Counted from the first letter of the whole stretch, positions 1 to 19,130 are shown. The stretch is DNA of 61,941 nt, filler included, from Eubacteriales bacterium (GCA_045636665.1; 6 parts of 6 records of this genome joined end to end with filler, not necessarily neighbours in it), one strand, 5' to 3'. Notes: generated by a model not told the origin, from the sequence alone. Numbers and translations are program-made.

Positions 1-1
1 A

Positions 2-991
2 TTGCTTCGTCAGTTATCGTTCTTCAGCACCGAAAAAAGCGTTTCATCGGTCTATTTCGGCGGCGGCACACCGCCAATGCTCGGAATCGACAGATTATGT
101 AAACTTTTAGAAGCGGTGAAAAGCAAATTCAAGCTCGAACAGGATTGCGAGATAACGGTTGAGGTCAACCCGAAAACGGTTGATTTTGACGGCTTGGCAA
201 AGCTGCGCGAGGTTGGTTTTAACCGTCTTTCGGTCGGTGTACAATCGGCAAACGACGAAATGCTTCGCAGTATCGGGAGAATCCACAGCTTCGGTGACGC
301 GGTCGATTGCATTAAAAACGCAAAAGCGGTTGGATTTGACAATATAAGCGCAGATATAATCTTTGCACTTCCCTCTTTAACGCTCGATGTATTAAGGGAC
401 AGCGTTATTAAGATTATGTCAACCGATGTTTCGCATATTTCGGCATATTCGTTGCAGCTGGAGGAGGGCACACCGCTTTATAACAGGCGAGAGGATTTGA
501 GCCTTCCGACCGAGGAAGCCGAGGAGGAGCAATATAATTTATTGTGCGACCTTTTAAGCGGAAACGGATTTTCGCATTACGAAATTTCATCGTTTTGCAA
601 GGACGGAAAAAGGTCGCGCCACAACCTTTCCTATTGGAAAAGGGATGAATACTTCGGCTTTGGCGCAAGCGCGCATTCCTTTTACAACAACCGCAGGTTT
701 TCAAACGTTTCGGACGTTAACGAGTATATAAGGCTGACGAATATCGGACTTTTCGCGCCGACCGATTACGATAAGGCGCAACCGATTTCAAGCGACGAAG
801 CGCTTGAGGAATCGATACTTTTGGGGCTTCGCACGTCCGACGGCGCATTGATTCCCGATCGTGCGGTCAAAGCCGCAAAGCAGGTTTCAAATTTAGGCTA
901 CGGCAGCTTTGAAAACGGTATTCTTGCGCTCAATTCAAAGGGCTTTCGCGTTTCGAACGCGATTATCGGCAAAATCATTGAAAGCATTTAA
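2..991 (+). CDS. hemW: Radical-SAM heme chaperone HemW/HemN-like, 5'-truncated at window edge
   Basis: YFGGGTP, EITVEVNP, NRLSVGVQS, HISAYSL, HYEISSF and HNLSYW...YFGFGASAHS motifs; the CxxxCxxC motif would lie upstream of the window. Confidence 0.9.
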   Translation: MLRQLSFFSTEKSVSSVYFGGGTPPMLGIDRLCKLLEAVKSKFKLEQDCEITVEVNPKTVDFDGLAKLREVGFNRLSVGVQSANDEMLRSIGRIHSFGDAVDCIKNAKAVGFDNISADIIFALPSLTLDVLRDSVIKIMSTDVSHISAYSLQLEEGTPLYNRREDLSLPTEEAEEEQYNLLCDLLSGNGFSHYEISSFCKDGKRSRHNLSYWKRDEYFGFGASAHSFYNNRRFSNVSDVNEYIRLTNIGLFAPTDYDKAQPISSDEALEESILLGLRTSDGALIPDRAVKAAKQVSNLGYGSFENGILALNSKGFRVSNAIIGKIIESI

Positions 992-1003
992 TATTAACAA
1001 CTT

Positions 1004-1037
1004 GAACAGAATCGTTTATCGGTTCTGTTCTTTTTTT
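1004..1037 (+). terminator. Intrinsic terminator after hemW
   Basis: GAACAGAATCG-tttat-CGGTTCTGTTC stem followed by T7. Confidence 0.85.
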
Positions 1038-1084
1038 ATGCACATTTTACAGATTACGTGGGATTTCGGTGAGAAAAACACGGG

Positions 1085-1113
1085 ATGAAATCACGTTTAA
1101 AAAGCTTTACAAT
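1085..1113 (+). promoter_or_regulatory. Sigma-A-like promoter of the phage-like cassette
   Basis: ATGAAA-17 nt-TACAAT; AAGGAGG RBS at 1131-1137 precedes ATG 1151. Confidence 0.5.
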
Positions 1114-1150
1114 AATGTCATCGGATGCGAAAGGAGGCGAAAAATTACGC

Positions 1151-1531
1151 ATGGACGATAGCAAGAACAAAAGCACTGTTTTCGATTCACCCGAGGAATT
1201 GAACCAAGCGATCGAAGAATATTTCGGCGAGCATTTACCGACAAGCGGTGAGATTGCCGATATTGAATCGCTTGCCGATTACTTGGGCACGACAAGGGAC
1301 GAGCTTATTGCGATGATGAACGATAAAAGGGTTGGCTTTACGTTGGGGCTGGCGAGGAACAGAATCGCAAAAATCAAAAAGCAGTTGGCGTTTGGCGGAA
1401 AGATACCTGCGGCGGTTCTTTCGTTTGATTTAAAGAACAACCACGGTTACAAGGACAAGCCCGAGGATACCGACACGACTCCACACGAAAGCGTTGTATT
1501 TAAGGGCAAGACCTCACAATGGGCGCAATAA
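1151..1531 (+). CDS. Terminase small subunit (P22 gp3-like packaging family)
   Basis: FDSPEELNQAIEEYF...LADYLG...FDLKNNHGYKDK pattern; overlaps terL; start chosen from the RBS. Confidence 0.75.
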   Translation: MDDSKNKSTVFDSPEELNQAIEEYFGEHLPTSGEIADIESLADYLGTTRDELIAMMNDKRVGFTLGLARNRIAKIKKQLAFGGKIPAAVLSFDLKNNHGYKDKPEDTDTTPHESVVFKGKTSQWAQ

Positions 1532-2886
1532 AGGAAATCCTTATCCAACCAAACGCAAAGCAGAAGCAGTTTTTCGAATCGAAGGCTCGCTATACCGCCT
1601 ACGGAGGAGCACGTGGCGGCGGCAAAAGCTGGGCGATGAGAATGAAGCTGATACTCCTTGCGCTTAATTACGAGGGCATTCAAATACTTCTGCTTCGCCG
1701 TACACTCTCCGAGCTTCGCGAAAACCACCTTCTGCCGATGCTTTCGCTTTTATCGGGCATTGCGAAATATTCGAGCACCGAAAAGGAGTTTCGCTTCCCC
1801 AACGGCTCACGGATAAAGCTTGGGTACTGCGAAAGCGTGAACGACGTGCTTCAGTTTCAGGGACAGGCTTATGAGGTTATCGGTTTGGAGGAAGCCACAC
1901 ACTTCACCGAATTTCAGTTTCTCGCCCTTACCGAAAGCAACCGAGCAAGCGGTTTTATGAAAAAGAAGTTCGTTCCGAGAATGTATTTTACCTGCAACCC
2001 CGGCGGTGTCGGGCACGAATGGGTGAAAAGGCGCTTTATCGACCGTGATTACCGCGGTAACGAAAAGGAAAGCGATTACCTTTTTATTAAAAGTCTGGTG
2101 TTCGACAACGAATACATTATGAAAACCAACCCCGAATACGTCGACACGCTTCTTAACCTTCCCGAAACGCGAAGAAACGCGATGCTTTACGGCGATTGGA
2201 ACGCATTCGAGGGTATGTTTTTCCCCGAATTCGACCCGAAAAAGCATATCGTTTACGGCGATATTCGCATCCCCGACGGCGCGATACGCTTCCGTGCGCT
2301 CGATTACGGACTCGATATGACGGCTTGCTTGTGGTGCGCGGTTGCGCCCGACGGCAAAATCACCGTCTACCGCGAGCTTTACGAAAAGAACCTTTTGCTT
2401 TCCGAGGCGGCGCAAAAAATCATCGCTCTGACCGAAAAGGGCGAAAAAATACGCTATACCGTCGCATCCCCCGACCTTTGGAACCGACGGCAGGAAAGCG
2501 GAAAAAGCGGGTTCGACATTATGTCGGAAAACGGACTAAGGCAAATGATAAAGGCGGATAACAGCCGTATTTCCGGCTGGCGCGTCGTTAGGGAATATTT
2601 GAAATCGGGCGAATTTACCTCTCCGAAGCTCGTTATTTCAAGCAATTGCCAAAACCTTATTCGCTCAATCCCCCTGCTTCGCTTCGACGAGCGCATCCGC
2701 GAGGACGCATCCGATTCGCCTCACGAAATAACCCACGCGCCCGAAGCGCTGCGTTATGCGTTAATGTCGCGTCAGCCGAAAACCGCACCGCAAAAACGAA
2801 ACCGCTATGCGTCGAGCGTTTACACCTTTGACAACGCAAACGACAGCAACGAAAACAGCGATTTCCAAGACTTTATTTCCTATTAG
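1519..2886 (+). CDS. Terminase large subunit
   Basis: YGGARGGGKS Walker A, IGLEEATHF Walker B, FTCNPGG coupling motif, C-terminal nuclease RALDYG...HAPEALRY. Confidence 0.95.
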   Translation: MGAIKEILIQPNAKQKQFFESKARYTAYGGARGGGKSWAMRMKLILLALNYEGIQILLLRRTLSELRENHLLPMLSLLSGIAKYSSTEKEFRFPNGSRIKLGYCESVNDVLQFQGQAYEVIGLEEATHFTEFQFLALTESNRASGFMKKKFVPRMYFTCNPGGVGHEWVKRRFIDRDYRGNEKESDYLFIKSLVFDNEYIMKTNPEYVDTLLNLPETRRNAMLYGDWNAFEGMFFPEFDPKKHIVYGDIRIPDGAIRFRALDYGLDMTACLWCAVAPDGKITVYRELYEKNLLLSEAAQKIIALTEKGEKIRYTVASPDLWNRRQESGKSGFDIMSENGLRQMIKADNSRISGWRVVREYLKSGEFTSPKLVISSNCQNLIRSIPLLRFDERIREDASDSPHEITHAPEALRYALMSRQPKTAPQKRNRYASSVYTFDNANDSNENSDFQDFISY

Positions 2887-2899
2887 AAAGGAGAATCGA

Positions 2900-4468
2900 A
2901 TGAAAAGACTTAAGCCCTTTACCGAGGAATGGGAGCTTTATGAAAAGGGCAAGGAGTATAACTACTCGCTTAATCTTTATGAAAAGGTGAACACAAACGA
3001 AAGGTTTTACCGAGGCGACCAATGGGACAACCTTAAATCTTCGGGACTTCCGACACCCGTGTTCAACATCTTTAAGCGCATTATCGGGTATTTCACAAGC
3101 AGTATAATGCAGTCGCCCGTTAAAATGCGCTATACACTCGCATCCCCCCAATACGGCAAGGGTATTGACGGCAACAAGGCAAAAATCGCCTCGGCTAAGC
3201 TCAACTCCATCGCGGATATGCGCTGGGAGAAGAACAAAATGAACTCGCTTCTTGCCGATAGCCTCGTCGATGCCGCCGTATCGGGCGATGCGGTGTGCTA
3301 CACCTATTGGGACAACGATATCAAAACGGGACAGCCCTTTACGGGCGATTTCGTAAGCGTCCTTATCGATAACACAAACGTCTTTTTCGGCGATCCCAAC
3401 TCGAAGGACGTTCAAAAACAGCCCTATATCCTTATCGCCCAGCGCGAAACGGTCAAGGACCTTATCGCTCAGGCAAAAAGGAACGGAATGGGCAAGGACG
3501 TTACCGACAAAATAACGCCCGACGGCGATTATCAAACCCAATCGGGCGATATGGCAAGGTTCGAGCTTGAAAACACGAAATGCATTTCGCTTATCAAGCT
3601 TTGGAAGGACGAAAACGGCAAGGTTATGTACCGCAAATCGGTGAAAAACGCCGTAATTAAGGACACGACCGACACAATGCTCACGCTCTACCCCATCGCC
3701 TTTTACAATTGGTCGAGCGTTAAAAATTCTTGGCACGGTACCGCCGTCGGAAGCTCGTTAACCGACAACCAAATATTCATTAACAAGGGTTTTGCAATGG
3801 TAATGAAGCACATGATGGATACCGCGTTTTCAAAGGTCGTTTACGATTCGACGTTGCTTGACGGCTGGTCGGACCGTGTTGGCGAGGCGATTGCCGTAAA
3901 CGGTCCGGTTGAAAACGTCGCCAAGGTCATCTCGCCCGGGGTGATGCAATCGGGAATGCTCGACGTGATTAATATGGCGATTGCCAACACGAAGGAGTTT
4001 ATGGGCGCGACCGACGCCGCATTGGGCAACGTTGCACCCAACAACACAAGCGCAATTCTCGCACTGCAAAACACGTCGGCTGTTCCGCTTGAAAACGTCA
4101 AGCGCAATATGTATCAGTTCGTCGAGGATATCGGTCTTATCTGGCTCGATTTTATGTTTTCCTATTACGACGACGAGCGTCTTGTCGCAACGCTTGACGG
4201 CAGTGACGAGTCCTTCACCCGTTTTGATATGTCGGTATGGAAGGACGCGCTGTTTTCCTGCAAGGTCGACGTCGGCGCAAGCAGCTATTGGAGCGAAATC
4301 AGCGCACTTAACACGCTTGACCGACTGCTTGAGCTCGGCAGGATAAACACAATTCAGTATCTCGAACGCATTCCCGACGGAATCATTCCCGAAAAGGAAA
4401 AGCTTATCGAAGAAATCAAATCAAACGAAGCCGCACAGAAAGGAAGTGAATTAATTGAAAAAAATTAA
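2900..4468 (+). CDS. Portal protein (P22-like)
   Basis: FYRGDQW...PVFNIFKRII N-terminal pattern; ~520 aa; position after terL; AAAGGAG RBS before ATG 2900. Confidence 0.85.
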   Translation: MKRLKPFTEEWELYEKGKEYNYSLNLYEKVNTNERFYRGDQWDNLKSSGLPTPVFNIFKRIIGYFTSSIMQSPVKMRYTLASPQYGKGIDGNKAKIASAKLNSIADMRWEKNKMNSLLADSLVDAAVSGDAVCYTYWDNDIKTGQPFTGDFVSVLIDNTNVFFGDPNSKDVQKQPYILIAQRETVKDLIAQAKRNGMGKDVTDKITPDGDYQTQSGDMARFELENTKCISLIKLWKDENGKVMYRKSVKNAVIKDTTDTMLTLYPIAFYNWSSVKNSWHGTAVGSSLTDNQIFINKGFAMVMKHMMDTAFSKVVYDSTLLDGWSDRVGEAIAVNGPVENVAKVISPGVMQSGMLDVINMAIANTKEFMGATDAALGNVAPNNTSAILALQNTSAVPLENVKRNMYQFVEDIGLIWLDFMFSYYDDERLVATLDGSDESFTRFDMSVWKDALFSCKVDVGASSYWSEISALNTLDRLLELGRINTIQYLERIPDGIIPEKEKLIEEIKSNEAAQKGSELIEKN

Positions 4469-4997
4469 CAACGAAGCTATTCTCGACGTCATCTATGACC
4501 TTGCGGATGCAAACGGTATGAGAATAGACAGATTTTTGGAGCTTATCGAGGAGGAATTCGGCGCACAGCCCATCGACACAGATGGACTCCCCGAGGAAAT
4601 CGTCACCGAGCTCGAAAACGCGCGTTTAAGCGCAAAGGAGCATAAAAAGCAGCTCCGCGAGAAAAGGGATAAAGAGGAAATGGCGAAGGATATACAAGCC
4701 TTCCGCGAGGTCTTTTCCGACGTAACGGCGGAATCGATTCCCGACACCGTTTGGGACGACGTTGCAAACGGCATACCTCTTGCCCACGCCTATGCACTTC
4801 ATATCGCCTTAAGCACGCGTCTTAACGAACGCGCCGAAGGTATCAACGCAAGAAACGGCAGTATTTCGGCAATGAGCGTACAGGGAGGCGCAACCGAGCC
4901 GACCTTTACCAAGGAGCAGGTCGAAAAAATGTCGGGTCGTGACGTCCGCAACAACTACAAAAGCATTTTAAAATCAATGAAAAATTGGAGATTTTAG
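4455..4997 (+). CDS. Putative capsid scaffolding protein
   Basis: Acidic helical/coiled-coil 180 aa between portal and capsid; TTG start overlapping the portal stop. Confidence 0.65.
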   Translation: MKKINNEAILDVIYDLADANGMRIDRFLELIEEEFGAQPIDTDGLPEEIVTELENARLSAKEHKKQLREKRDKEEMAKDIQAFREVFSDVTAESIPDTVWDDVANGIPLAHAYALHIALSTRLNERAEGINARNGSISAMSVQGGATEPTFTKEQVEKMSGRDVRNNYKSILKSMKNWRF

Positions 4998-5008
4998 GAG
5001 GAATTTAA

Positions 5009-5833
5009 ATGGCAAACTACAACTCTATCGAAAAAATCATTTCGGCGGAGATTCTCCGCACCAACGAGGATAACCTCCTCGCAAACACCATCTGTAACAC
5101 CGAATTTTGCGGTGACATCAAAAACCGCGGTGACAGCGTGACCTTTATCGGTCTTAACGACCCCACCGTTTACGATTACGAGGGCAATATCGTCTATGAG
5201 GACATCGACGACGCATCCCTCACCCTTCTCATCGATCAGGACAAGGCGTTTTCCTTTAAGGTAAAGGACATCGAGGCGCTTCGCTCCTCTATCGGTCTTG
5301 AGGACAGCCAAACCAAGCGCGCAAGCTATCTTCTTAAGAACGAGGTCGATACCTACGTATTCGGTCTTTACAACGAAGCGGGTGAAACGCTTGACGAATC
5401 CGAAATCACCCCCGACAACGTCATCGCGACCGTTGCGGCAATGAAGCAAAAGCTCGAGGAGGCAAACGGGCCCGACGGCAGAACCTGGATCGTCGTACCC
5501 CCGTTTATCAAAACCAAGCTTATGCTCGCAGGCATCAAGTTCCAAATCAACAACGGCGTAAACGGTACCGGTGCAGTCGCCTTTACCGACGAGCTCGGCT
5601 GCGACATCTTCGTGTCCAACCAGCTTGCCGAAAGCGGCGATTACACAATGATGCTTGCAGGCTCTTACTCGGCTATCGCCTATGCCGAGCAGGTGCTTGA
5701 AACTCAAGTGCTCGACCGTCTTGAAAACTCGTTCGACAAGGCGGTGCGCGGCAGACTCGTCTTCGGCGCAAAGGTAATCAAGCCCAACGAACTCGTGTGC
5801 TGTCCCGTAAAAGACGGCGGCAACACGCTCTAA
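5009..5833 (+). CDS. Major capsid protein (HK97 fold, P22-coat-like)
   Basis: NTEFCGDIKNRGDSV, LLIDQDKAFSFKVKD and AVRGRLVFGAKVIKP patterns; strong AGGAGG RBS. Confidence 0.85.
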   Translation: MANYNSIEKIISAEILRTNEDNLLANTICNTEFCGDIKNRGDSVTFIGLNDPTVYDYEGNIVYEDIDDASLTLLIDQDKAFSFKVKDIEALRSSIGLEDSQTKRASYLLKNEVDTYVFGLYNEAGETLDESEITPDNVIATVAAMKQKLEEANGPDGRTWIVVPPFIKTKLMLAGIKFQINNGVNGTGAVAFTDELGCDIFVSNQLAESGDYTMMLAGSYSAIAYAEQVLETQVLDRLENSFDKAVRGRLVFGAKVIKPNELVCCPVKDGGNTL

Positions 5834-5855
5834 AGCAAAAAAGGAGGTTTCTTAA

Positions 5856-6218
5856 ATGAACGTTATCACTGCAAAAGGTTATTTTAATTCAACCGCACTC
5901 ACTCTCCAAAAGCTCGAATACGCCGATACTCAATATCAATTTTCGGCAAACGTTTCGGGCGGAAAAAGCGTTACCGTGCTTGTCGAGCTTGCCGCACAGG
6001 CATCGACGAAATGCAAGCTCGTTTGTGTAGGCGTGAACGGCTATCCCGACAAGGAAATCGCCCTCACCCCCGGTGTGCTCAACGTTATCCCTATCGAAAC
6101 GATGGGCTATATCAGAAGCGACGGCACAACCGAGTTCATCTTCAAAAGCGACAAGGCGGTCCTTGACGCAGGCGCAATGATGGGCGTTGTAAGACATATC
6201 GACGCAGTAAACAACTAA
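5856..6218 (+). CDS. Hypothetical beta-rich protein, possible capsid decoration protein
   Basis: Strong AAGGAGG RBS; lies between the capsid gene and an internal terminator. Confidence 0.5.
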   Translation: MNVITAKGYFNSTALTLQKLEYADTQYQFSANVSGGKSVTVLVELAAQASTKCKLVCVGVNGYPDKEIALTPGVLNVIPIETMGYIRSDGTTEFIFKSDKAVLDAGAMMGVVRHIDAVNN

Positions 6219-6226
6219 CTTTTTTC

Positions 6227-6261
6227 AGGGCTGCCGCACAAAAGGGCGGCGGCCCTTTTTT
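6227..6261 (+). terminator. Internal terminator after the capsid module
   Basis: AGGGCTGCCGC-loop-GCGGCGGCCCT followed by a T-run. Confidence 0.8.
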
Positions 6262-6281
6262 AATTAAGAAAGGAGGAAACA

Positions 6282-6665
6282 ATGACAGGCAATCAACTTT
6301 TTGAAGCATCGCTTGACCTTTTAGGTCTTCGCAACGAAAATGCACAAGCGCCGAGCGACACCGACGATTTAAAATCGCGTGCATTGACGCTTATCAACAC
6401 CGCCCTTGCCGAAGTGTCGACGCTCGATTGCAGAATCCGCCGATGCGAGCACACCGTCAAAAGCATCCCCTCGATGGAAAGCGAAATCGATTGCTCGGAT
6501 ATCGTTTTACATACCGTATTGCCCTATGCGGTTGCGCGCTTGCTTATCATCGGCGAGGATGAAGCGCTTGCCGCTTCGATGTCACGTCTTTGCGAGGAAG
6601 GCAAAAAGGGCGCGATAAGGTTCGGCAAAGCCAAAGCCCAGCCGATTGCGGAGGTGTATAAATGA
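6282..6665 (+). CDS. Putative head-tail adaptor (P22 gp4 / T7 gp11-like position)
   Basis: 127-aa helical protein with LPYAVARLL; AGGAGG RBS; synteny. Confidence 0.6.
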   Translation: MTGNQLFEASLDLLGLRNENAQAPSDTDDLKSRALTLINTALAEVSTLDCRIRRCEHTVKSIPSMESEIDCSDIVLHTVLPYAVARLLIIGEDEALAASMSRLCEEGKKGAIRFGKAKAQPIAEVYK

Positions 6666-8368
6666 TAACCACCCAAAAAGGCTTTATCGGTATCGACAAG
6701 CGCATTAAATTCGCCGACGGTATCCAAGCCGCGGCAGATTTAACGAATTTCAAAATCACCGACAGCGGCTCGCTCGAAAAACGCGCGTCGATTATCGAAA
6801 GATTCCGCTTTGCGGGTAACGTCGACGGGCTTTGGAGCGGTATGCTCGGCGGAAGCGAGTTAGTCGCGGTGGTTGCATCGGGCAAGCTTTATCGTGTAGA
6901 CGCATCGGTCGAAAACGCCGAAATCCACCTTGTCGGCAACGCCTGCTCGGAAAAGTGCAATATTTTCGAATTCAACGGCGCGCTTTACATCAAAAGCCAA
7001 AGCTATTACGGAAAATACGACGGCAAAAACCTCAAGGAGGTTCAGGGCTATATCCCCTGCGTCGCGTTAAGCTGTACGCCCAACGGCGAGGGCACACCGT
7101 TCGAGCAGTTAAACCTTTTGACCGACAAGCGCCGACAGCTTTTTTCGTCAGACGGCGAAAGCTTGGTCTATACCCTTGCCGAGGAGGACGTCGATTCGAT
7201 AATAAGCATCATGGTAGACGGAGAACCCTACACCAAGCCCTATTCGCTTGAGGATTGGTGCAGCGTGGCATTTCAATCGCCCCCAAAAGCAGGGCTTAAC
7301 AACGTTGAAATAACCTATTCAAAGGCGATGCGCCAATCCGACCGCGAACGCATTATGAAATGCACAAACGTGATGCTTTTCGGCGGTAACTCCGACGGAC
7401 GCGCATTCCTTTGGGGCAACCCCGAGCTTCCCAACTACCGCTTCCATTCCGACCTTGCAAACGGTGTGCCGAGCGTCGAATATTTCCCCGTAAACGCGTT
7501 CACCGTCATCGGCAACAGCAAAATTAACTGCATCGTACAACAATACGACAAACAGCTTATATTCACGAAAAACGAAGCATATTATTCCTACAGCGAGCTT
7601 CGTGACGACGGCTTGGGCAACACGATAACCTCGTTTCCGGTATTCAGCCTTAACGGAAGCAAGGGCTGTACGATCGAAACGTCGGGATGCATTATCGACA
7701 ACCGCCCCGTAACGCTTTGCGACGACGGGTTTAATATGTGGGAATCGACAAGCGTCGAAAACGAACGCAACGCGATATGCTTCTCGTCGCAAATAAATGC
7801 GGATTTAAACAAGCTTAGCTTGGCGGAAAAGGAATCGATGGTCATCTTCGATTTCCAAGCGAACCGCGAATTTTATTGCATCGTCGGAAGCAAGGCGTAC
7901 GTTTTCAATTACGGCAACGGAGCTTGGTATTGCTTCGAGGGATTGGACGGCGAGCTTTTTTCGGCATACGGAAACAAGCTTTACTTTTCAAGAAAAAACA
8001 GTCTTTTCAATTTTGGCAATTCGGTGCGCGAAGCAGACCTTACCTGCGAATTTTCAAGCCCGTTTATCTCCAACGCGCAAGGCAAAAGCGATTGCGACGT
8101 AACCCTGCTCGAGGCAGACGTTTTTATCGACGGCGAGGCAGGGTTGACCTTTGAATTTGAAAAAAGCAACGGCGAAACCAAAACGCGAAGATTCTATTAC
8201 CCCAACGGCACAAGCCGATTCTTCCGCATCTCGATGCGCCCGTCGCTTAAAAGAGCGATGCCCTTCCGCATCAAAATCAAGTCCGAGGGAGTCGGCAAAA
8301 TCGCCATCCACGGCATAACCATTAAAACAAGAGAAAAAGAAAGGAGCAAAAAATATGGCATACTCTGA
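6662..8368 (+). CDS. Putative tail hub/stabilisation protein (P22 gp10 / T7 gp12-like)
   Basis: Beta-rich 568 aa starting GFIGID...NFKITDSGSLEKR; ATGA overlap with the adaptor; synteny. Confidence 0.65.
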   Translation: MITTQKGFIGIDKRIKFADGIQAAADLTNFKITDSGSLEKRASIIERFRFAGNVDGLWSGMLGGSELVAVVASGKLYRVDASVENAEIHLVGNACSEKCNIFEFNGALYIKSQSYYGKYDGKNLKEVQGYIPCVALSCTPNGEGTPFEQLNLLTDKRRQLFSSDGESLVYTLAEEDVDSIISIMVDGEPYTKPYSLEDWCSVAFQSPPKAGLNNVEITYSKAMRQSDRERIMKCTNVMLFGGNSDGRAFLWGNPELPNYRFHSDLANGVPSVEYFPVNAFTVIGNSKINCIVQQYDKQLIFTKNEAYYSYSELRDDGLGNTITSFPVFSLNGSKGCTIETSGCIIDNRPVTLCDDGFNMWESTSVENERNAICFSSQINADLNKLSLAEKESMVIFDFQANREFYCIVGSKAYVFNYGNGAWYCFEGLDGELFSAYGNKLYFSRKNSLFNFGNSVREADLTCEFSSPFISNAQGKSDCDVTLLEADVFIDGEAGLTFEFEKSNGETKTRRFYYPNGTSRFFRISMRPSLKRAMPFRIKIKSEGVGKIAIHGITIKTREKERSKKYGIL

Positions 8369-9509
8369 TACCGTCAAGGCGTTCAAGGACGCGTTAAACG
8401 GCTATTCCGAAGAGGAAAACAAGCTGTCGGAGCTTTATAAAACCGCGCTTTCGAGAAACGAAAAGGCAAAAAACGATGGACTTACCCGGCTCGATACCGC
8501 CTATAAAAGCGACCGCAACGAGGTCTTTGCCGACAACGCCCGCGCCGAACAAAACGCCGCAAGAGTATTAAACTCGCGCGGGCTCGGCTTTTCGGGCGAA
8601 ATGGCTCAATCGAAGCTGAATTCAAACCTTTCGCTTTCAAACCGCTTGGGCGATTTGGCAAGTGAAAACGCAAAAAACAAACAAGACCTTATAAATCAGC
8701 ACGACCGCTATGCCCACGAGCTTTCGGTCGAGGAGGCGGAAAAGCGCTCAACGCTCAACGAGGGCAAAAGCAAGCTTCTTGCCGACATCGCAAAGGCAGA
8801 GCTCGAAAGCGAGCAAAAGGAAAAGGAGCTTGAGCTTGGATATGCCGAGCTTGAAGCCGAAAAAGAGCTTTTTAAAGCCGAATTGGAGGCAAAATACCAA
8901 AACACCCAAAGCAACGGCTCGACCGGTAACACAAACGGAGGAATCAACGGCTCGCAAACCGAATCCGACGAAGTCGACGATTACTTTTCACCCGAAATAA
9001 AGCCGAAGGACCTTGCAAACCTTATGGTTCAAAACGCGACCGGAGGCGATTACATCAAAACCGAACGACACGCCTACCTCGTCAACAAATATCTTCTCGA
9101 GGCGACCGAAAAATACAACCTCTCCGATTCGTATATGCAAGAGCTTGTATTTATGCTCAAGGCATACGGTCTAAAGGAATTGTCCTACTCCGAGCTTCGC
9201 AAAACCGTCATCACCCAAGACGCGCAGGAGCTTTATAACCACTCCTATGAAAAGCGCTATAAGGAATACGTCGAGCGCGGCGCGAAGCCCTTCAGAGCGC
9301 GTACCTACGCAAGAGGACTTGCGGTGACCGATACCTTCGATTACATCTTCTCGCACACCCAAAGCAAGGAGGAATTTTTGGAATACTGCGAGCTTATAAA
9401 GCTCGATTCCGAAGCGGCGAAGAATTACGCGTCGAACAAGGTCTGGAGCAAAAAAACCGACAAATCAAGTCCGCCTAAGCTTCAAAGCGCGACTCGTTTA
9501 ACAAAATAG
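8355..9509 (+). CDS. Coiled-coil protein, putative DNA ejection/pilot protein
   Basis: Long helical N-terminal half with an RGLGFSG motif, G/S/N linker; follows the hub gene as podovirus internal proteins do. Confidence 0.5.
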   Translation: MAYSDTVKAFKDALNGYSEEENKLSELYKTALSRNEKAKNDGLTRLDTAYKSDRNEVFADNARAEQNAARVLNSRGLGFSGEMAQSKLNSNLSLSNRLGDLASENAKNKQDLINQHDRYAHELSVEEAEKRSTLNEGKSKLLADIAKAELESEQKEKELELGYAELEAEKELFKAELEAKYQNTQSNGSTGNTNGGINGSQTESDEVDDYFSPEIKPKDLANLMVQNATGGDYIKTERHAYLVNKYLLEATEKYNLSDSYMQELVFMLKAYGLKELSYSELRKTVITQDAQELYNHSYEKRYKEYVERGAKPFRARTYARGLAVTDTFDYIFSHTQSKEEFLEYCELIKLDSEAAKNYASNKVWSKKTDKSSPPKLQSATRLTK

Positions 9510-9517
9510 GAGGCTTT

Positions 9518-9841
9518 ATGGATTTTACCGAATATATCGACCCCGAGCTTTTCGTCACCGTACCGGTGCTTTACCTGCTCGGTGTGATGATTAAAAAAAG
9601 CAGCATCAACGACAAATTCATCCCGTTAATTCTCGGTATCGTCGGTATTCTGCTTGCGCTCAGCTATCAAACGGCATCCCTTTTGCCGTCAACCGCTTCG
9701 GAAATCGCCTCGCTGATATTCGCAAGCGTAACGCAGGGAATACTTTGCGCTTCGTGCAGTGTGTATGCAAACAATTTGTTAAAGCAGCTCGGGAAAGGAA
9801 ACGGAAATGCTTCTTTTAAGGATAGCGAAAAAGGCGATTAA
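9518..9841 (+). CDS. Phage holin (Hol44/superfamily V-like)
   Basis: PELFVTVPVLYLLG..IK, DKFIPLILG, TQGILCA..SVYANNLLKQ; three hydrophobic segments; AGGAGG RBS. Confidence 0.85.
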   Translation: MDFTEYIDPELFVTVPVLYLLGVMIKKSSINDKFIPLILGIVGILLALSYQTASLLPSTASEIASLIFASVTQGILCASCSVYANNLLKQLGKGNGNASFKDSEKGD

Positions 9842-9884
9842 ATTCTATGCCGATTGCCTTTACGCCCTGATTTACGAGCCTTAA

Positions 9885-10211
9885 ATGTCCTTTGAACTGT
9901 TAGCCGAGCTTCTGCCGATAATCCTTTCTTCCGCAGGTGTGACGGGATCGCTTTTCGCGGCAATAACGGTATACGCGATAAAAAAGGCGAAAAAGGATGC
10001 CGAACAAAAGCGTGAAGAACGGCTTAAGCTCGAAATATTGCGTCTTGAGGGCGATGAAAAGCTTTCTTCCCTCATATTCGCCCTAATACGCACACTCAAC
10101 GGCAACGGCGACTCTCACGAGCTTGACGAAGCAATCCGCGCATACACCGAGCACATAAATAAATCCAACGCGCTGAAAAATCTTATCATCACAAATCACA
10201 CGGCAAATTAG
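9885..10211 (+). CDS. Single-TM coiled-coil protein of the type found in phage lysis modules
   Basis: N-terminal hydrophobic helix, KKAKKDAEQKREER, then NGD..ELDEA; adjacent to holin. Confidence 0.55.
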   Translation: MSFELLAELLPIILSSAGVTGSLFAAITVYAIKKAKKDAEQKREERLKLEILRLEGDEKLSSLIFALIRTLNGNGDSHELDEAIRAYTEHINKSNALKNLIITNHTAN

Positions 10212-10229
10212 CCCGATTTTTACTCACCT

Positions 10230-10298
10230 GCCTTTTAAAAGAATCGGGGGCCTTTTTAGTTATCAAACGGCTTAAAGGTCACCGATTCCTCAAAAGGC
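10230..10298. other. Long imperfect hairpin at the right end of the cassette
   Basis: Nested pairs GCCTTTT/AAAAGGC, GAATCGG/CCGATTC, GGCCTTT/AAAGGTC. Confidence 0.6.
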
Positions 10299-10325
10299 GC
10301 AATTAAAAAGCAATTAACTTTTGTC

Positions 10326-10354
10326 TTGCATTTTTTCAGTTTCCGTGGTATAAT
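10326..10354 (+). promoter_or_regulatory. Sigma-A promoter with extended -10
   Basis: TTGCAT-17-TATAAT with TG extension, then GGAGG RBS. Confidence 0.75.
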
Positions 10355-10384
10355 TGATAAAATTTCACCTATGGAGGTAAAAAA

Positions 10385-13300
10385 ATGAAAAAATGGTTTA
10401 AATCAACGCTTGCTTTATTGCTTGCTCTCACCATGCTTTTGGGCGTTCTTGCGTCCTGCAACGATGAAAGCACCGATAGCAGCGAAACCGAATCGGGCGC
10501 AGAAAGCTCGGCTTCTTCCGACGAATCCAAGTCCGAAACAAGCAAAGACGACGGCGCCGAGTTTATTAAAGGCGAACCTGTTAACAACCCCGAATATGCT
10601 ACCGTTGTAAGCGTAGGTCGTTCTTACAACTCCACCACCGAATCCAATACTCAATATCCCGATACTTACGGTATCGAGCTTACAGACGGTAAATACGGCC
10701 CTCCCGAAGGCAGTGACTATACCTCCGTTGATTTTAACGGATATTCAGGCTCTACCCCCATTATTTTGTCTATCGACCTCGGCGAACAATTCGATACCCT
10801 TTACGAATTTCGTCTTGGTTATCTTTCGACCAACAATGCAGGCGTAAAGGCACCCACGAAGGTTCGTGTCGGTGCATCGATCGACGGCAAAAAATATTAC
10901 ACCGTAGGCGACCTTGAAATCCCCGAATTTGTTGAAGGCAAGCGCCTTGAAGCAATCCTCAAGACCGAAAATTACGTCAAAGCGCGTTACATCCGCTTCT
11001 CTATCATCAAAGGCGGCTGGCTCTTCCTCGATGAAGCAGAGGTCATCGGTAACGTCGAAAAGGTTGCCGACTCCAGCGAAGTTATTCTTGAAAACCTCAA
11101 AGCGGCTTACGATAAGCTCGGCACCGTTAAATACGAGGGCGGCAAAGAGATCGATATGAACCTGCCTCTTTCGCTCATCAGCCAAAATAAGAGCTATACC
11201 GCTTCCGTTGAACCTGCCGCAGGCTTCCTCGATAAATCCAACTACCTCACCGACGGTCAGATTACCGGTATTCTCAGCGGCGGCAACTGGGTTGGCTATG
11301 ACGGAAACCAAAATCTCGAAATCGTCGTTGACCTCGGCTCCTCGAGAAGCGATATTTCGGACTTCCGTCTTACCTGCTATGCCACCAACACCGTCGGCAA
11401 CGGACTTCCCGTCGCAGTTACCTATTCGGTAAGTGAAGACGGCAAGACATATACCGAGGTCGGCAGAGTTTTCGGCCCCTCCGCAAGACAAAACACCTTT
11501 GATTACGGTCTTTCGCTCGTCAAATGTGCAAGCGGCAGATACGTTAAATTCGCTATAGAATCAACCGACACCGCAAGATATCTTATCGAAGAAGCGGCTG
11601 TTTACAACCGCGCACTCGGTCAGCTCGGTCACGAATCTTACCCCTATCCCACCTTTGACCTTGAACCCAAGGAATGGGATAACCCCTCCTCCAAGGAAAC
11701 CAACCTCGCTCTCGGTCTTCAGCAATGGGTTTACATCCCCGCCGATATCGATGTTGAGCTTAATAACACCACCCCTGCAGATACCACCATCCTTACCAAT
11801 GGCAAGAAGGGCCCCAACACCGATATACATAACGGCTGGTTCTTCAAGATTCACAGCTCCTCTTCTCCTCTTGAAATATTCTTTGACCTTGGCGCAACCA
11901 GCACGGTAAAGAGCGTCAACATTGAATTTATCAACCGCGAAGGCTGGGGCGTATTGCCTCCCGCATCTTACGACGTTTACGTTTCCGATGACGGCATTAA
12001 TTGGTACAGCGCAGGCACCTGCAAGCCCGAACCCAAAAACGAAAACTGTCTTGTAGACGCAACCCTTAAGTTGAAAAAGCCCGTTCAGGCACGTTACGTC
12101 AGCGTTTATATGATGACCAACGGTTGGGTTGGCTTCTCCGAGGTTGAAGTATTCGGCTGCACCTCCACAAAGGGCACCGCAACCATCGAGGGAGCTAAAT
12201 ATCCCAAGCGCGGCGAAGGCAATCTCGGCTATCTCGAGCCCAGCGAAGACCTCATCAAGGGCTACAAGGACGTTTGCTTGCTCTACCACCGCGTTGACAG
12301 ACCCGGCTACAACGAAAGCGAGCTCCTCCGTTACCTTGCATACGTTGACGAACAAGGCAATATCAAGGACACCCTTTTCGACAGCTTCCTCTTCCTGCAA
12401 AGCGGCGACCTTCCCTCGGGCAAGGCGAATAACAGCGCAATAACCAAAGCCGACCTTGATTGGATGCTCGATTCGATATTCTCGAAGGATATCAACCTCG
12501 GCGCTATGGAAAAGGTTGCGGCTCAAATCAAGTCCGAGCTCGGTCTTGACAAGGACTTCAAGTTCGGCGTAAGCATGACCATCTACAAGCCCTTCCTCGG
12601 CACCGATTACGGTGATTACGACGGCGACGGCAAATCCAACGTACTCAACACCGAAGCAGACAGAATCGCGGCTATCGACGCATATATGACCGAGGTTGAA
12701 AAGAGATTCGCAGAAGGCGGCTATGAACATCTCGAGCTTATCGGCTACTATTGGTACCGCGAAGGTATTTATCCCGAAGATGATAACGACATCGAGGTTA
12801 TCAAGGCAACCAGCAAGAAGAGCCACGAGCACGGCTATGATTTCTTCTGGATTCCGTGGTACAACGCTCCCGGCGTTGAATATTGGAAGGACTGCGATTT
12901 CGACGTTGCAGTAATGCAGCCCGGTTACGTATTCGACCTTGCAATTCCCGAAGGAAGACTTGAACAGGCGGCTAACTATATCCGTCAGTACGGTATGGGT
13001 ATCGAAATCGAAATCGGTTGGGCAAACCTCAACGACCCCGCACTCCGCGAAAGATATATCGAATATCTTATGGGCGGCGTTCAGTTCGGTTATATGAAGA
13101 ACTGTATCCATATGTACTACCAAGAAGTAACCGCTATCTATGCGGCTTCCGCTTCGACCGACCCCAAGGTAAGACAGCTTTACGATTACACCTATCAGTT
13201 CATCAAGGGTACGCTCCAAGCATATCCCGATGCACTTGAAACCGTTAAGGTAAGCGGAAAGGCTAACGAGCTTATCACGGGTAAGATTACCGAGGATGCT

Positions 13301-13480
13301 GTTGATTACATAATCAGCACCGTCCAAAGCCCCGAGCACGGTACTCTCTCCCTCTGTTCGGACGGTTCCTTCACCTACTACCCCGAAAAGGACTTCAAGG
13401 GCACCGTAACCTTCACCTACACCTTCAATGCAGGCCTCGGCGAATCCAAGCCCTGCACGATCGAAATTACGATTGAATAA
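10385..13480 (+). CDS. Lipoprotein with about three discoidin (F5/8C)-like modules, a DUF4855-like domain and a C-terminal Ig/cadherin-like domain
   Basis: Lipobox LASC; repeated LTDG...IDLG...S.DG..Y...ARY modules; DTLFDSFLFL, GYYWY, FWIPWY, MQPGY, GMGIEIE; HGTLSL..DGSFTY.P. Confidence 0.8.
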   Translation: MKKWFKSTLALLLALTMLLGVLASCNDESTDSSETESGAESSASSDESKSETSKDDGAEFIKGEPVNNPEYATVVSVGRSYNSTTESNTQYPDTYGIELTDGKYGPPEGSDYTSVDFNGYSGSTPIILSIDLGEQFDTLYEFRLGYLSTNNAGVKAPTKVRVGASIDGKKYYTVGDLEIPEFVEGKRLEAILKTENYVKARYIRFSIIKGGWLFLDEAEVIGNVEKVADSSEVILENLKAAYDKLGTVKYEGGKEIDMNLPLSLISQNKSYTASVEPAAGFLDKSNYLTDGQITGILSGGNWVGYDGNQNLEIVVDLGSSRSDISDFRLTCYATNTVGNGLPVAVTYSVSEDGKTYTEVGRVFGPSARQNTFDYGLSLVKCASGRYVKFAIESTDTARYLIEEAAVYNRALGQLGHESYPYPTFDLEPKEWDNPSSKETNLALGLQQWVYIPADIDVELNNTTPADTTILTNGKKGPNTDIHNGWFFKIHSSSSPLEIFFDLGATSTVKSVNIEFINREGWGVLPPASYDVYVSDDGINWYSAGTCKPEPKNENCLVDATLKLKKPVQARYVSVYMMTNGWVGFSEVEVFGCTSTKGTATIEGAKYPKRGEGNLGYLEPSEDLIKGYKDVCLLYHRVDRPGYNESELLRYLAYVDEQGNIKDTLFDSFLFLQSGDLPSGKANNSAITKADLDWMLDSIFSKDINLGAMEKVAAQIKSELGLDKDFKFGVSMTIYKPFLGTDYGDYDGDGKSNVLNTEADRIAAIDAYMTEVEKRFAEGGYEHLELIGYYWYREGIYPEDDNDIEVIKATSKKSHEHGYDFFWIPWYNAPGVEYWKDCDFDVAVMQPGYVFDLAIPEGRLEQAANYIRQYGMGIEIEIGWANLNDPALRERYIEYLMGGVQFGYMKNCIHMYYQEVTAIYAASASTDPKVRQLYDYTYQFIKGTLQAYPDALETVKVSGKANELITGKITEDAVDYIISTVQSPEHGTLSLCSDGSFTYYPEKDFKGTVTFTYTFNAGLGESKPCTIEITIE

Positions 13481-13483
13481 ACC

Positions 13484-13517
13484 GAAAGGACAGAGATTTT
13501 TCTCTGTCCTTTTTTCT
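13484..13517 (+). terminator. Intrinsic terminator
   Basis: AAAGGACAGAGA-ttt-TCTCTGTCCTTT followed by Ts. Confidence 0.8.
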
Positions 13518-13665
13518 ATCTATGACCGTAACAGTCAAGAAAACTTCTCTTTAAATCCTACCAAAATAATGCCCCTCATCCGTCACCTTCGGTGCCACCT
13601 TCCCCCAAAGGGGAAGGCAATTAAGACCGTCACGCATACAGAGATTTTTCTCTGTCCTTTTTTCT
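13490..13665. repeat. 28-bp exact direct repeat (13490-13517, 13638-13665) enclosing a two-hairpin element (13571-13618)
   Basis: ACAGAGATTTTTCTCTGTCCTTTTTTCT twice; inside are CACC-TTC-GGTG and CCTTCCCC-CAAA-GGGGAAGG. Confidence 0.85.
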
Positions 13666-13693
13666 TGCAATTTGCGTTTTAATATGATATAAT
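13665..13693 (+). promoter_or_regulatory. Sigma-A promoter
   Basis: TTGCAA-17-TATAAT with TG extension; AAGGAG RBS. Confidence 0.7.
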
Positions 13694-13719
13694 ATCCAAA
13701 AATTAAAAAGGAGATAACG

Positions 13720-14724
13720 ATGAAAAGATTTATCGCGTTCATTCTTACTATGTTATTTTTAACAGTTCCGCTCACCGCAAGCGCAAAGGGCGACATTAAC
13801 GAGGTCGCTACCTTCAACACCTACAAAAACGACAACACCGTACTCCCCTACCGCCTTATCCTCCCCGATAATTACGACGACAACAAAACCTATCCCCTTA
13901 TTTTCTTCTTCCACGGCGCAGGCGAACGCGGTAACGACAACAAGCTTCAATTCTTCCACCTCGTTCAGTATATCTATGACAACGCACCCGAGGATTGCAT
14001 TATCGTTGCGCCTCAATGCCCCGTTAACAACCAATGGGTTGATACCCCTTGGATAAGCGGCGCATATTCCACCGATACCGTCAAGGAATCCAACGAAATG
14101 GCAGCAGTTATGGAGCTCCTCGACAACCTTGAAGCAAAATACAGCGTTGACGAAGACAGAATCTATGCAATCGGTCTTTCGATGGGCGGCTTCGCTACTT
14201 GGGACATCATCACCCGCCACAACGACGTTATCGCGGCGGCAATTCCCATCTGCGGCGGCGGCGACCCGAGCAAAGCAGAGCTTCTTAAGGAAACCCCCAT
14301 CTTCACCTTCCACGCAGTAAACGATACCTCTGTTCCCTACCAAGGCACAAAGCAAACCGTTGACGCTATCAAGGCAGTCGGCGGCACCAAGATTGAATAT
14401 ACCCAATATACCACCGGCGGCCACGGCATTTGGAATCAAGCTATCCAAACCAAGGGACTTCTCGAAAAGCTCTTCAATTGCAAGCTTTCCGACCGTTATC
14501 CCGATGAAACAAGCACCGATGTATCCGAAACCGTTTCCGACGTAAGCACCGAAAACGGCACTGACGCATCGACCGACGCTTCCGCCGAAATTTCCCAACC
14601 CACCACCGAAGAAACCGAAGGCGGATTCTGGAATGCAACAACCTTAACCTTGGCAATTTCTATCGGCATCGCCGCAATCATCACCGCACTTCTTTCGGTA
14701 TTCAAGAAAAAGAAAAAAGCATAA
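13720..14724 (+). CDS. Secreted, C-terminally anchored alpha/beta hydrolase (esterase/peptidase-like)
   Basis: Signal peptide; HGAGERG, GLSMGG nucleophile elbow, D..VP and GHGIW; S/T/E linker, TM helix and KKKKK tail. Confidence 0.85.
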   Translation: MKRFIAFILTMLFLTVPLTASAKGDINEVATFNTYKNDNTVLPYRLILPDNYDDNKTYPLIFFFHGAGERGNDNKLQFFHLVQYIYDNAPEDCIIVAPQCPVNNQWVDTPWISGAYSTDTVKESNEMAAVMELLDNLEAKYSVDEDRIYAIGLSMGGFATWDIITRHNDVIAAAIPICGGGDPSKAELLKETPIFTFHAVNDTSVPYQGTKQTVDAIKAVGGTKIEYTQYTTGGHGIWNQAIQTKGLLEKLFNCKLSDRYPDETSTDVSETVSDVSTENGTDASTDASAEISQPTTEETEGGFWNATTLTLAISIGIAAIITALLSVFKKKKKA

Positions 14725-19127: not shown

Positions 19128-19130
19128 GAT

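Follow-up and report, generated by a model that had tools for sequence, protein, structure and literature searches.

The question raised by this locus is whether a cluster of phage head, DNA-packaging and short-tail genes of ~9 kb (1151-10211), lying between host genes of a gut clostridium, is a phage, what is left of one, or a particle system that now belongs to its host. The window, meaning the whole stretch of DNA that was analyzed (61,941 nucleotides), comes from an Eubacteriales genome that is 80% complete. The first-pass annotation, made from the sequence alone, had read the cluster as an intact packaging and virion operon, and this was borne out by the ORF listing and family scans: 11 intact, co-oriented ORFs on the plus strand abut or overlap between 1085 and 10211 (Table 1), encoding TerS, TerL, a P22-type portal, a scaffold, a capsid, two small proteins, a podovirus nozzle, a coiled-coil protein, a holin and a membrane protein.

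Table 1. Features of the cluster and its left flank, numbered from the first nucleotide of the window.
Feature	Position	Strand	Evidence
hemW-like radical SAM gene	2..991	+	Radical_SAM + HemN_C; 5' end cut by contig start
Intrinsic terminator of hemW, 11-bp stem + T run	1004..1037	+	hairpin 1004-1030
Putative promoter, conserved	1081..1113	+	CGGGATGA box 1081-1088, 19 nt, -10 TACAAT 1108-1113
Small terminase TerS, 126 aa, P22 gp3-like core only	1151..1531	+	GP3_package E 8e-10, residues 8-104; phrog_606
Large terminase TerL	1519..2886	+	Terminase_3/6N; phrog_979 E 4e-49
Portal, P22/SU10 type	2900..4468	+	P22_portal E 7e-20; phrog_156
Putative scaffolding protein, acidic, helical	4455..4997	+	between portal and capsid; weak phrog_14606 match
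Major capsid protein (MCP), 274 aa	5009..5833	+	phrog_267 E 2e-37; precomputed Pfam PF25209 Phage_capsid_4
g7, small beta-rich protein, fast evolving	5856..6218	+	
Strong internal intrinsic terminator, 11-bp stem, 9 G-C	6227..6256	+	after head genes
g8, putative head-to-tail adaptor	6282..6665	+	directly before nozzle gene
g9, tail hub/nozzle of short-tailed phage, 568 aa	6662..8368	+	Foldseek of AF2 model; phrog_3287
g10, all-alpha protein, 180-residue coiled-coil hairpin	8355..9509	+	AF2 model pLDDT 82.7
Holin, Hol44 family	9518..9841	+	Phage_holin_5_2 E 7e-24; phrog_1129
g12, small protein, one N-terminal membrane helix + coiled coil	9885..10211	+	

The proposed start of the element at 1151 held up: although the terS ORF opens at 1085, the ATG at 1151 follows a strong ribosome-binding site (AAAGGAGG, 1130-1137) and orthologues align from there. 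Likewise, ATG 2900 is the most likely start of the portal, rather than 2807, where its ORF opens, because orthologues align from residue 23-32. TerL is present as a single copy in the genome. The family matched weakly by the putative scaffold is also matched by the scaffold-position gene of phages L197 and L221. The capsid gene is the most conserved of the cluster (66-88% identity, dN/dS 0.011-0.047); among the best 120 capsid homologues listed, identity is at least 77% and all are nameless or called 'hypothetical protein'. The product of g7 gave no match in family searches and has orthologues detectable in close species only; we would guess at a decoration or connector protein. The atlas neighbors of g8 are viral clusters, one of which has SU10_adaptor in 15% of its members, which serves as a lead only.

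The nozzle model (pLDDT 86.7) matched the tail protein of Pa223 (9nwi_Y, E 3.5e-18, TM 0.64/0.71) and P22 gp10 (8eap_D, E 7.7e-17), as well as T7 gp12, Sf6 gp8 and SU10. The coiled-coil protein g10 is encoded by the fastest-evolving large gene (23-42% identity between species) and has no PDB match, by sequence profile or by fold; a needle, ejection or fibre-like role is a guess. The g12 product, without a family match, is conserved downstream of the holin in 21 of the 33 family loci and is perhaps a lysis accessory, again a guess. Neither an endolysin nor a tail fibre or receptor-binding protein was detected within the cluster, and protein queries from related clusters found no fibre or endolysin elsewhere in the 80%-complete genome. 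The encoded particle may be incomplete, or its missing parts unrecognizable.

Both borders are as originally described. The hemW-like gene, a host neighbor outside the element, ends in its terminator on the left; on the right, a weak hairpin past 10211 is followed by a TTGCAT-17-TATAAT promoter before a gene at 10385, whose 1031-aa product belongs to a host family with matches on ~20 other contigs of the same genome. Since the contig opens within hemW, this assembly keeps only 1 kb of left flank; in relatives, secDF-lepA-hemW precedes the cluster. Also in agreement with the initial reading, family scans found no integrase, repressor or replication genes at the cluster and no integrase on its contig, and no flanking direct repeats or att repeats were found around it. 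The claim that its codon style matches that of the host stood only in part: 11% of genome windows exceed the cluster in tetranucleotide distance, but its GC content is 0.495 versus 0.453 for the genome (+1.7 sd, the sd of 9-kb windows being 0.025), and random sets of host genes totalling 9 kb are as distant in codon usage in only 2% of cases (RSCU r 0.876 to the host for the cluster). The composition is slightly foreign; a GC content shifted relative to the host has also been described for gene transfer agents (PMC7360931).

Complete phages with this structural module do exist. L197 and L221 are uncultured, complete temperate phages of 41-42 kb in IMG/VR, and phages of this lineage have, immediately ahead of terS, genes for integrase, RusA, methylase and replication. 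They share with the cluster, as does Pagevirus of Bacillus megaterium, the module, its gene order, the scaffold and capsid PHROGs and the nozzle; however, Pagevirus, L197 and L221 have complete genomes that also encode integrase, replication, regulation, lysis and a tail spike or fibre, whereas the cluster keeps terS to g12 only. The locus does not have the make-up of a complete temperate podophage, as no adjoining integrase, regulators or replication genes and no att repeats were found. The relationship is distant: the portal is 32% identical to that of the Bacillus podophage Page, 46-48% identical to those of L197 and L221, and 49% or less to that of any of the nearest complete phages.

The distribution of the cluster is near-universal and clade-structured rather than patchy. 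Across eight genera of the family, a portal occurs in 101 of 109 species genomes (g1 53/60, g28 2/2, g29 10/10, g31 13/13, g33 5/6, g34 12/12, g36 4/4 and g39 2/2), with one full-length copy per genome at 54-95% identity, in pieces in a few fragmented assemblies. In genera g26, g27, g30, g32, g35, g37 and g38 it was found in 0-1 genomes each, the only two matches having E 9e-4 and 32% identity. The TIGR04387 capsid family, typical of ordinary prophages and used as a control, was patchy (12/164 genomes). Gene order is kept in 33/33 family loci examined, as far as contigs reach. The site is largely constant, downstream of lepA-hemW: in 16/33 loci, secDF-lepA-hemW directly precedes the cluster, one of them with a 3.4-kb insertion between hemW and terS, while locus G077 has an inverted cluster at this site and several lineages have the cluster away from hemW.

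Inheritance across the clade is vertical. A tree of TerL, portal and MCP was compared with a host marker tree of LepA for the 31 genomes common to both; the two are congruent, with 18 of 28 splits in common against 3 at most (mean 0.31) in 1000 label permutations, and patristic distances correlate (r 0.85, Mantel 0/2000; 0.95 within genus). An AU test marginally rejects genus monophyly on the element tree (p 0.037), a post hoc result for a node whose LepA support is only 89. The time scale is indicated by LepA, which in the eight genera is only 73-80% identical to that of the host genus. Every cluster gene is under purifying selection, with dN/dS (NG86, 8 close species pairs) of 0.011-0.36, far below 1, and a portal value of 0.116; LepA gave 0.009-0.04 and hemW 0.08-0.25 for comparison. 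Pseudogenization is rare, the ORFs being intact in 33 loci except for one likely frameshift. In the two closest species, dS is 0.02-0.10 for MCP, g7 and g8, 0.12-0.35 for terS to g5, and 0.5-0.7 for g9-g12, a mosaic which indicates that part of the locus has been exchanged by recombination and that its descent is not strictly clonal. The cluster has been lost in at least 3 species, and those examined bear deletion scars at the same site: G081 and G030 retain the promoter, a terS fragment, a g10 fragment, the holin and g12, and G027 has a 32-aa stub of g12, flanked by hemW and by the downstream genes found in the window. In sum, the domesticated short-tailed system fixed in a lineage of gut Clostridia that the first-pass annotation had envisaged is supported, having passed each of the refutation tests named there that were run.

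Ahead of terS, the CGGGATGA box overlaps a weak -35 (ATGAAA), and the same box, spacing and distance to terS recur in 16 genomes of genera g1, g31, g28 and g36. A relaxed form of the promoter pattern has 4 sites in this genome, fewer than in shuffles; the conserved box has no second site in this genome, the only one being that before terS. The element is a putative promoter, and the internal terminator a putative attenuator; in phage Page, terminators are annotated just after the head gene and after the small genes following it. Among public sequencing runs searched for the stretch, none covered it well.

It is likely that the cluster descends from a phage and is now a particle operon passed on vertically as a host locus, which makes it a viriform of podovirus architecture and of the gene-transfer-agent kind. 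The operon would be transcribed from the conserved, probably activator-dependent promoter just past the hemW terminator. TerS and TerL would form the packaging motor, and portal, scaffold and the 274-aa capsid protein a small head; the terminator behind the head genes may reduce tail-gene expression, adaptor, nozzle and coiled-coil protein would close the head with a stubby tail, and holin and the small membrane protein would aid particle release. Since there are no replication, integration or immunity genes and the locus is inherited with the chromosome only, the terminase would have only host DNA available. This may be packed by headful, by analogy with FpGTA, the podovirus-like gene transfer agent of Faecalibacterium prausnitzii (Borodovich et al., Nat Commun 2026, PMC12946183; preprint 10.1101/2024.11.15.623857). 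We infer that particles are produced, package host DNA at random and deliver it to other cells.

The alternative that survives best, though unlikely, is a particle kept for a purpose other than transfer, whether PBSX-like killing or a programmed device for lysis and DNA release, which would pack DNA without delivering it productively. Such a purpose is left open for FpGTA by its authors (PMC12946183); the survival of holin and g12 after deletion of the structural genes in G081 and G030 is consistent with it, and the fast-evolving C-terminal part of g9, g10 and the holin fit a weapon under diversifying selection. However, purifying selection on TerS, TerL and portal is as strong as on the capsid (dN/dS 0.03-0.29), which argues that DNA packaging itself is maintained, and family scans of the cluster turned up none of the sheath, tube or baseplate genes that known tailocins have. 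A functionless, decaying prophage remnant carried along beside essential genes would account for the presence of structural genes only, the lack of a recognized fibre or endolysin and the loss of the cluster from some species, but it is very improbable: eleven genes are intact across eight genera, a time scale on which decay is expected, with dN/dS of 0.01-0.36 and one candidate frameshift in 33 loci, and the losses are clean deletions. A mobile element, such as a capsid-forming satellite (cf-PICI-like), that depends on a helper phage for tails or lysis and inserts repeatedly beside hemW is scarcely credible, for although such islands have head and packaging genes without a recognizable fibre or endolysin, as the cluster does, the cluster has no integrase, primase/replicase, regulator or att repeats, carries its own adaptor and nozzle, and is a single-copy element whose tree follows that of the host.

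The reading as a host-owned, gene-transfer-agent-like locus may extend beyond this family. In the sister family, the same portal occurs in 49/51 genomes and all 8 genera, and related host-flanked clusters appear to be fixed there; the TerS-TerL pair and the portal lie on different contigs in 5/5 genomes checked. Across the order, sampled evenly, a related TerL is near-universal in several families (26/26, 25/26, 5/5 and 3/3) and was not found in others (0/26 and 0/26). TerL clusters by host family, and in 17/29 loci of the other families the five ORFs closest to it on the upstream side include housekeeping or metabolic genes; host-flanked clusters are probably fixed in other families as well. 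Phage TerLs interleave in the tree, which indicates that domestication or module replacement occurred several times. We tentatively propose, with somewhat less than even confidence, that the cluster forms one branch of a large and old radiation, spanning this order of gut Clostridia, of particle operons that derive from podoviruses and are fixed in their hosts. If so, these bacteria would possess GTA-like particles as a standard organelle throughout the lineage, with FpGTA as one instance, and the dedicated, conserved promoter would point to a common host-side switch. Gut viromes contain GTA-like packaging of Oscillospirales DNA that is unexplained; the cluster is a genetic candidate for it, and supplies a defined operon and promoter suited to expression and testing.

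To our knowledge, gene transfer agents have been well studied almost only in Alphaproteobacteria, and Faecalibacterium provided the first podovirus-like one, which was also the first from a gut commensal, only in 2024-2026. Among other particles, PBSX of Bacillus subtilis is likewise phage-derived and chromosomally fixed in a Gram-positive host, but it is contractile-tailed and much larger, while the cluster is without sheath or tube genes. RcGTA has known regulators, CtrA and GafA; for the cluster, only a conserved promoter has been seen. PBSX packs host DNA and acts as a killing particle (PMC12946183). RcGTA, as described, and the cluster are both host-fixed sets of head and tail genes without replication or integration functions, and share vertical inheritance, co-divergence with the host, purifying selection and sporadic loss (PMC5721377; PMC6821227; PMC10883770). 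RcGTA is nevertheless siphovirus-like, belongs to a different phylum and differs from the cluster in its head protease and tail genes.

The first-pass annotation knew of no characterized element of this type, which is out of date, as FpGTA has the same operon layout (PMC12946183). According to the order of accessions RCH50853 to RCH50844 and the functions in supplement 1, FpGTA I, like the cluster, is an operon of ~9-10 kb in the order TerS, TerL, portal, scaffold position, capsid, small genes, nozzle and coiled-coil protein (PMC12946183). Both nozzles match P22 gp10 (PDB 8eap), and the coiled-coil protein, annotated 'TolA' in FpGTA, has its counterpart in g10; both systems occur near-ubiquitously in their host genus in gut Clostridia, and no lifestyle genes are present in the cluster or reported for FpGTA (PMC12946183). 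FpGTA particles of 40 nm contain ~8.5-9 kb of host DNA, packed by headful, and particle, proteome and DNA-size data are available for them (PMC12946183). The FpGTA holin, endolysin, fibres and receptor-binding protein lie in a second operon 125 kb away (PMC12946183); the cluster has its holin in the main operon, and queries from related clusters found no second locus in the 80%-complete genome. The scaffold-position gene of FpGTA is annotated as a Prp protease, a match that the gene of the cluster does not have, and its capsid is annotated as N4-gp56 family (PMC12946183), while that of the cluster is Phage_capsid_4/phrog_267, without an NCBIfam match to N4-gp56 at E <= 0.01, and TIGR04387 was not found in this genome. 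The host families also differ. Because the capsid families differ, in a comparison of layout and annotation only, the cluster looks like a lineage separate from FpGTA. With co-divergence, purifying selection, deletion scars and a conserved promoter, its domestication signature is complete, and comparative genomics alone thereby adds to FpGTA a second, apparently separate lineage of podovirus-like GTA architecture, fixed in an entire uncultured family.

The source assembly (1.8 Mb in 139 contigs, 80% complete) places window positions 1-19389 on a single contig, C124, while everything beyond 19389 comes from other contigs of the genome, separated by N runs. The ORF listing for this contig gives 11 co-oriented reading frames, abutting or overlapping, between 1085 and 10211. 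Together with family scans (Pfam, PHROGs and NCBIfam) and a structural model of the nozzle protein, it confirms the 11-gene phage packaging and virion operon proposed in the first-pass annotation. The assignments are collected in the table.

Features of the cluster on contig C124 (window positions)
Feature	Position	Strand	Basis or remark
Intrinsic terminator	1004-1030	+	3' of hemW
Small terminase (TerS), 126 aa	start 1151	+	RBS AAAGGAGG in front; P22 gp3-like core and nothing else
Large terminase (TerL)	in cluster	+	family scans
Portal, P22/SU10-type	likely start 2900	+	family scans
Scaffold	4455-4997	+	position and weak leads
Major head protein	in cluster	+	phrog_267; precomputed Pfam: Phage_capsid_4
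Small protein	5856-6218	+	position and weak leads
Strong intrinsic terminator	6227-6256	+	3' of head genes; phage Page much alike
Adaptor	6282-6665	+	position and weak leads
Holin, Hol44	in cluster	+	family scans
Small protein	9885-10211	+	position and weak leads

Modelled with AlphaFold (pLDDT 86.7), the 568-aa protein g9 matches podovirus tail hub and nozzle proteins, including Pa223 (E 3.5e-18, TM 0.64/0.71), P22 gp10, T7 gp12, Sf6 gp8 and SU10. The model of the 384-aa protein g10 shows a 180-residue coiled-coil hairpin and a helical domain (pLDDT 82.7), and a Foldseek search of structures with this fold gave no match at E <= 0.001. Sequence-profile searches of the PDB with g8 (the putative adaptor), g9 and g10 returned nothing below E 0.08.

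Directly upstream of terS lies a conserved box, CGGGATGA, then about 19 nt and a TAnAAT-type -10 element, often with an extended TGn. Sixteen genomes, belonging to four genera, have this promoter equally far from terS; among them are a subclade with a relocated cluster and genome G030, where only the holin and g12 (a small membrane protein) are left. Because a weak -35 is combined with a conserved upstream box, the promoter's sequence suggests dependence on an activator or an alternative sigma factor. A pattern search of the source genome found no second such site: there were 4 matches against 13-20 in shuffles, of which the terS site alone is real. An Rfam scan of C124 detected just two tRNA genes at the far end of the contig (19168-19348, minus strand) and no riboswitch or leader ahead of terS. 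Among public sequencing runs, 9 DNA runs are listed with the stretch, each with 5-7% of sampled words, and no RNA run is listed.

As had been claimed, no integrase is encoded on C124 and no direct repeats were found flanking the cluster. The composition, earlier described as host-like, is indeed near that of the host, yet not identical to it. The right-hand neighbour is a 1031-aa gene of a host family with matches on about 20 other contigs of the same genome. It encodes a DUF4855/F5-8 type C/Ig protein and, with an esterase gene, occupies 10385-14724, between g12 and the pair d195-d511 (14735-16854). In several other species of the source genus, g1, this pair follows g12 directly. The 1031-aa gene and the esterase gene look like an insertion, one shared by G032 and G027. 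The position of d195 and d511 in these relatives first suggested that they were extra cluster genes; they were ruled out because the other seven genera lack them at their loci, and d511 also because it has a paralogue in the source genome and resembles DUF3370 proteins.

The portal was searched for in 164 species genomes of family CAG-382. It is present in 53/60 genomes of g1, 2/2 of g28, 10/10 of g29, 13/13 of g31, 5/6 of g33, 12/12 of g34, 4/4 of g36 and 2/2 of g39. Carriers have a single full-length copy per genome at 54-95% identity, which is in pieces in a few fragmented assemblies. Apparent stops inside portal matches proved to be either ahead of the true start or at the edges of the alignments, the open frames being full length. 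Each of the remaining seven genera has a portal match in 0-1 genomes, and both matches there are weak. As a control, the capsid family TIGR04387, typical of ordinary prophages, was patchy (12/164 genomes over 7 genera).

As far as contigs reach, gene order is the same in 33/33 family loci examined. A check of synteny beside hemW, as had been proposed, found secDF-lepA-hemW directly upstream in 16 of the 33 loci, with 3.4 kb inserted between hemW and terS at one of the 16; in one genome (G077) the cluster is inverted at an unchanged site. Some lineages have other neighbours, as at some loci of g28, g31, g34 and g36. In a g1 subclade of four genomes (G025, G008, G036 and G012; loci L025-L028) the cluster lies away from hemW, head-to-head with a divergent gene for a 780-810 aa protein with glucosaminidase, Big_2, SH3 and dockerin domains. 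This gene is a possible cell-wall hydrolase partner of the cluster; a homologue (38%) is found on contig C58 of the source genome.

Seven g1 genomes lack the portal, and deletion scars mark the site in three of them. Two (G081, locus L063, and G030, locus L064) retain the promoter, pieces of terS and g10, the holin and g12. Here the terS and g10 remnants are fused, and promoter, holin and g12 are intact despite loss of the structural genes; holin and g12, a lysis pair, may serve a purpose by themselves. The third, G027, keeps only a 32-aa g12 remnant, followed by the same downstream genes as in the window. In two further portal-less genomes the contig stops at or just past hemW, and in the last two the sequence fetched beyond hemW contains no cluster genes.

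Congruence of TerL and portal with the host tree was assessed with a LepA tree (55 rows) and a tree of TerL, portal and capsid (32 rows), which have 31 genomes in common. The two agree closely, sharing 18/28 splits (label permutations: mean 0.31, maximum 3), and patristic distances correlate with r 0.85 (Mantel 0/2000) overall and 0.95 within genus. The one conflict is at g33/g1: the element tree places g33 inside g1, with an AU test against g1 monophyly giving a post hoc p of 0.037, and LepA support there is only 89. Six of the portal-less genera form one clade of the LepA tree (support 100), while the seventh, g32, is sister to portal-bearing g31, which implies loss in g32.

Purifying selection had been proposed as a check, and Nei-Gojobori estimates for eight close species pairs bear it out: dN/dS is 0.011-0.047 for the capsid and 0.03-0.36 for the other cluster genes (0.116 for the portal in the pair formed by the source genome, G000, and G032), compared with 0.009-0.04 for LepA and 0.08-0.25 for hemW among host markers. 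The 33 loci contain one broken-gene candidate, a likely frameshift in the nozzle gene of G089. Between the source genome and its closest relative, G032 (locus L103), dS is mosaic. Values are about 0.04-0.05 for lepA and hemW, 0.02-0.10 for the capsid gene and the small genes g7 and g8 behind it, and 0.12-0.35 for terS, terL, portal and g5 (the scaffold position). Across the stretch that begins with the nozzle gene, runs through g12 and continues into the downstream d195 gene, dS is 0.5-0.7. This pattern indicates that the tail-distal part (6662-10211) was exchanged by recombination.

Among cultured phages, the nearest are podophages of Bacillus megaterium in the genus Pagevirus, with the same module order and a portal identity of 32%. 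A portal of 32% identity is also found in MT836592.1, an unannotated 'Bacteriophage sp.' of 9588 bases from human faeces, a size near that of these clusters and of the DNA cargo of FpGTA, the podovirus-like gene transfer agent of Faecalibacterium prausnitzii. In IMG/VR, seven short contigs (<=13.4 kb) at 59-80% identity represent the same cluster; L190 (9150 bases) is among them, and one record runs exactly from terS to g12. Records of this sort, in which a host-fixed cluster is filed as 'viral', would raise the apparent number of viruses of these hosts. All other IMG/VR matches have at most 49% identity, several being on contigs of 36-42 kb. Two of these, L197 and L221, were annotated. Upstream of TerL both encode RusA, a methylase, regulators and replication initiators; there is also an integrase in L197 and a recognisable TerS in L221. 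Both have scaffold and capsid PHROGs as in the cluster, and L197 also has the nozzle and a lipase-type tail fibre. The cluster is the remainder, from terS to the lysis genes, of a phage genome like these.

Related genes extend beyond the portal-bearing genera. In f16, a second family of the order, a related portal was found in 49/51 genomes and all 8 genera, in the rearranged order portal-adaptor-nozzle-scaffold-capsid with host genes on the flanks (loci including L034, L139, L145 and L269-L273). The f16 TerL is 60-66% identical to that of the cluster and lies on a contig other than the portal's in 5/5 genomes; in G051, the only genome annotated for this, TerS and then TerL stand between genes for phosphoglucose isomerase and a large serine recombinase. 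Across the order, 400 evenly sampled genomes yielded TerL in 26/26, 25/26, 25/26, 5/5 and 3/3 genomes of five families, in 19/25 and 20/25 of two, and in 0/26, 0/26 and 1/26 of three. When the five nearest upstream ORFs were scanned at 29 TerL loci, housekeeping or metabolic genes were found at 17, a resolvase with a replication gene at 1, and a phage integrase at none. Sigma-70-type genes adjoin TerS in two other families (L288, f9; L296, f27), and at a third set of loci (L294/L295, f27) pectate-lyase-like beta-helix genes, which are tailspike-like, are transcribed divergently from TerS; these neighbours are leads to regulator and receptor-binding parts, respectively.

In the portal-less clade of CAG-382 (L298-L302, from g27, g30, g35 and g37), TerL was present at about 50% identity in 5/5 sampled genomes, with TerS recognised beside it in 4/5 and host genes (UvrD/AddA-like helicase, AsnA, DHH/HAD) upstream in the same four. 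This TerL belongs to a different lineage on the TerL tree, so a further domesticated cluster may be present in these genera. On the tree (70 rows) family labels need 20 changes, against a minimum of 16 and a shuffled mean of 53; CAG-382 and f16 are sisters (support 98), and phage TerLs are interleaved. This clustering by family with phages interspersed points to several domestications or module swaps in the wider order, rather than one clean event.

Domestication of the CAG-382 cluster is strongly supported. No published description of the family's cluster was found in literature searches. The first-pass annotation had known of no characterised element of this type, a statement overtaken by FpGTA, the first podovirus-like gene transfer agent according to its authors (Borodovich et al., PMC12946183). 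According to that article, operon I encodes a TerS that lacks a DNA-binding domain, the large terminase and portal, a gene at the scaffold position, the capsid, small proteins, a nozzle for which 8eap is the match, and an abundant protein annotated as 'TolA'. Fibres, RBP, holin and endolysin come from a second operon 125 kb off, and about 8.5-9 kb of host DNA is carried in 40-nm capsids. CAG-382 is listed in the article's table of families whose particle-borne long-read share varies by read length, and is not discussed in its text. The accessible part of a 2026 mouse preprint (10.64898/2026.07.08.737213) describes Oscillospirales families as enriched in VLP DNA and reports no gene clusters. 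Compared by published annotation, the layout of the CAG-382 cluster is the same, whereas the capsids differ: that of FpGTA is assigned to the N4-gp56 family, which the cluster capsid does not match. The best 120 homologues listed for the cluster capsid (at least 77% identity) are nameless or 'hypothetical protein'. By analogy with FpGTA, a gene-transfer function is plausible. The kind of element is already known, and the CAG-382 cluster is a well-supported new example of it, not a new category.
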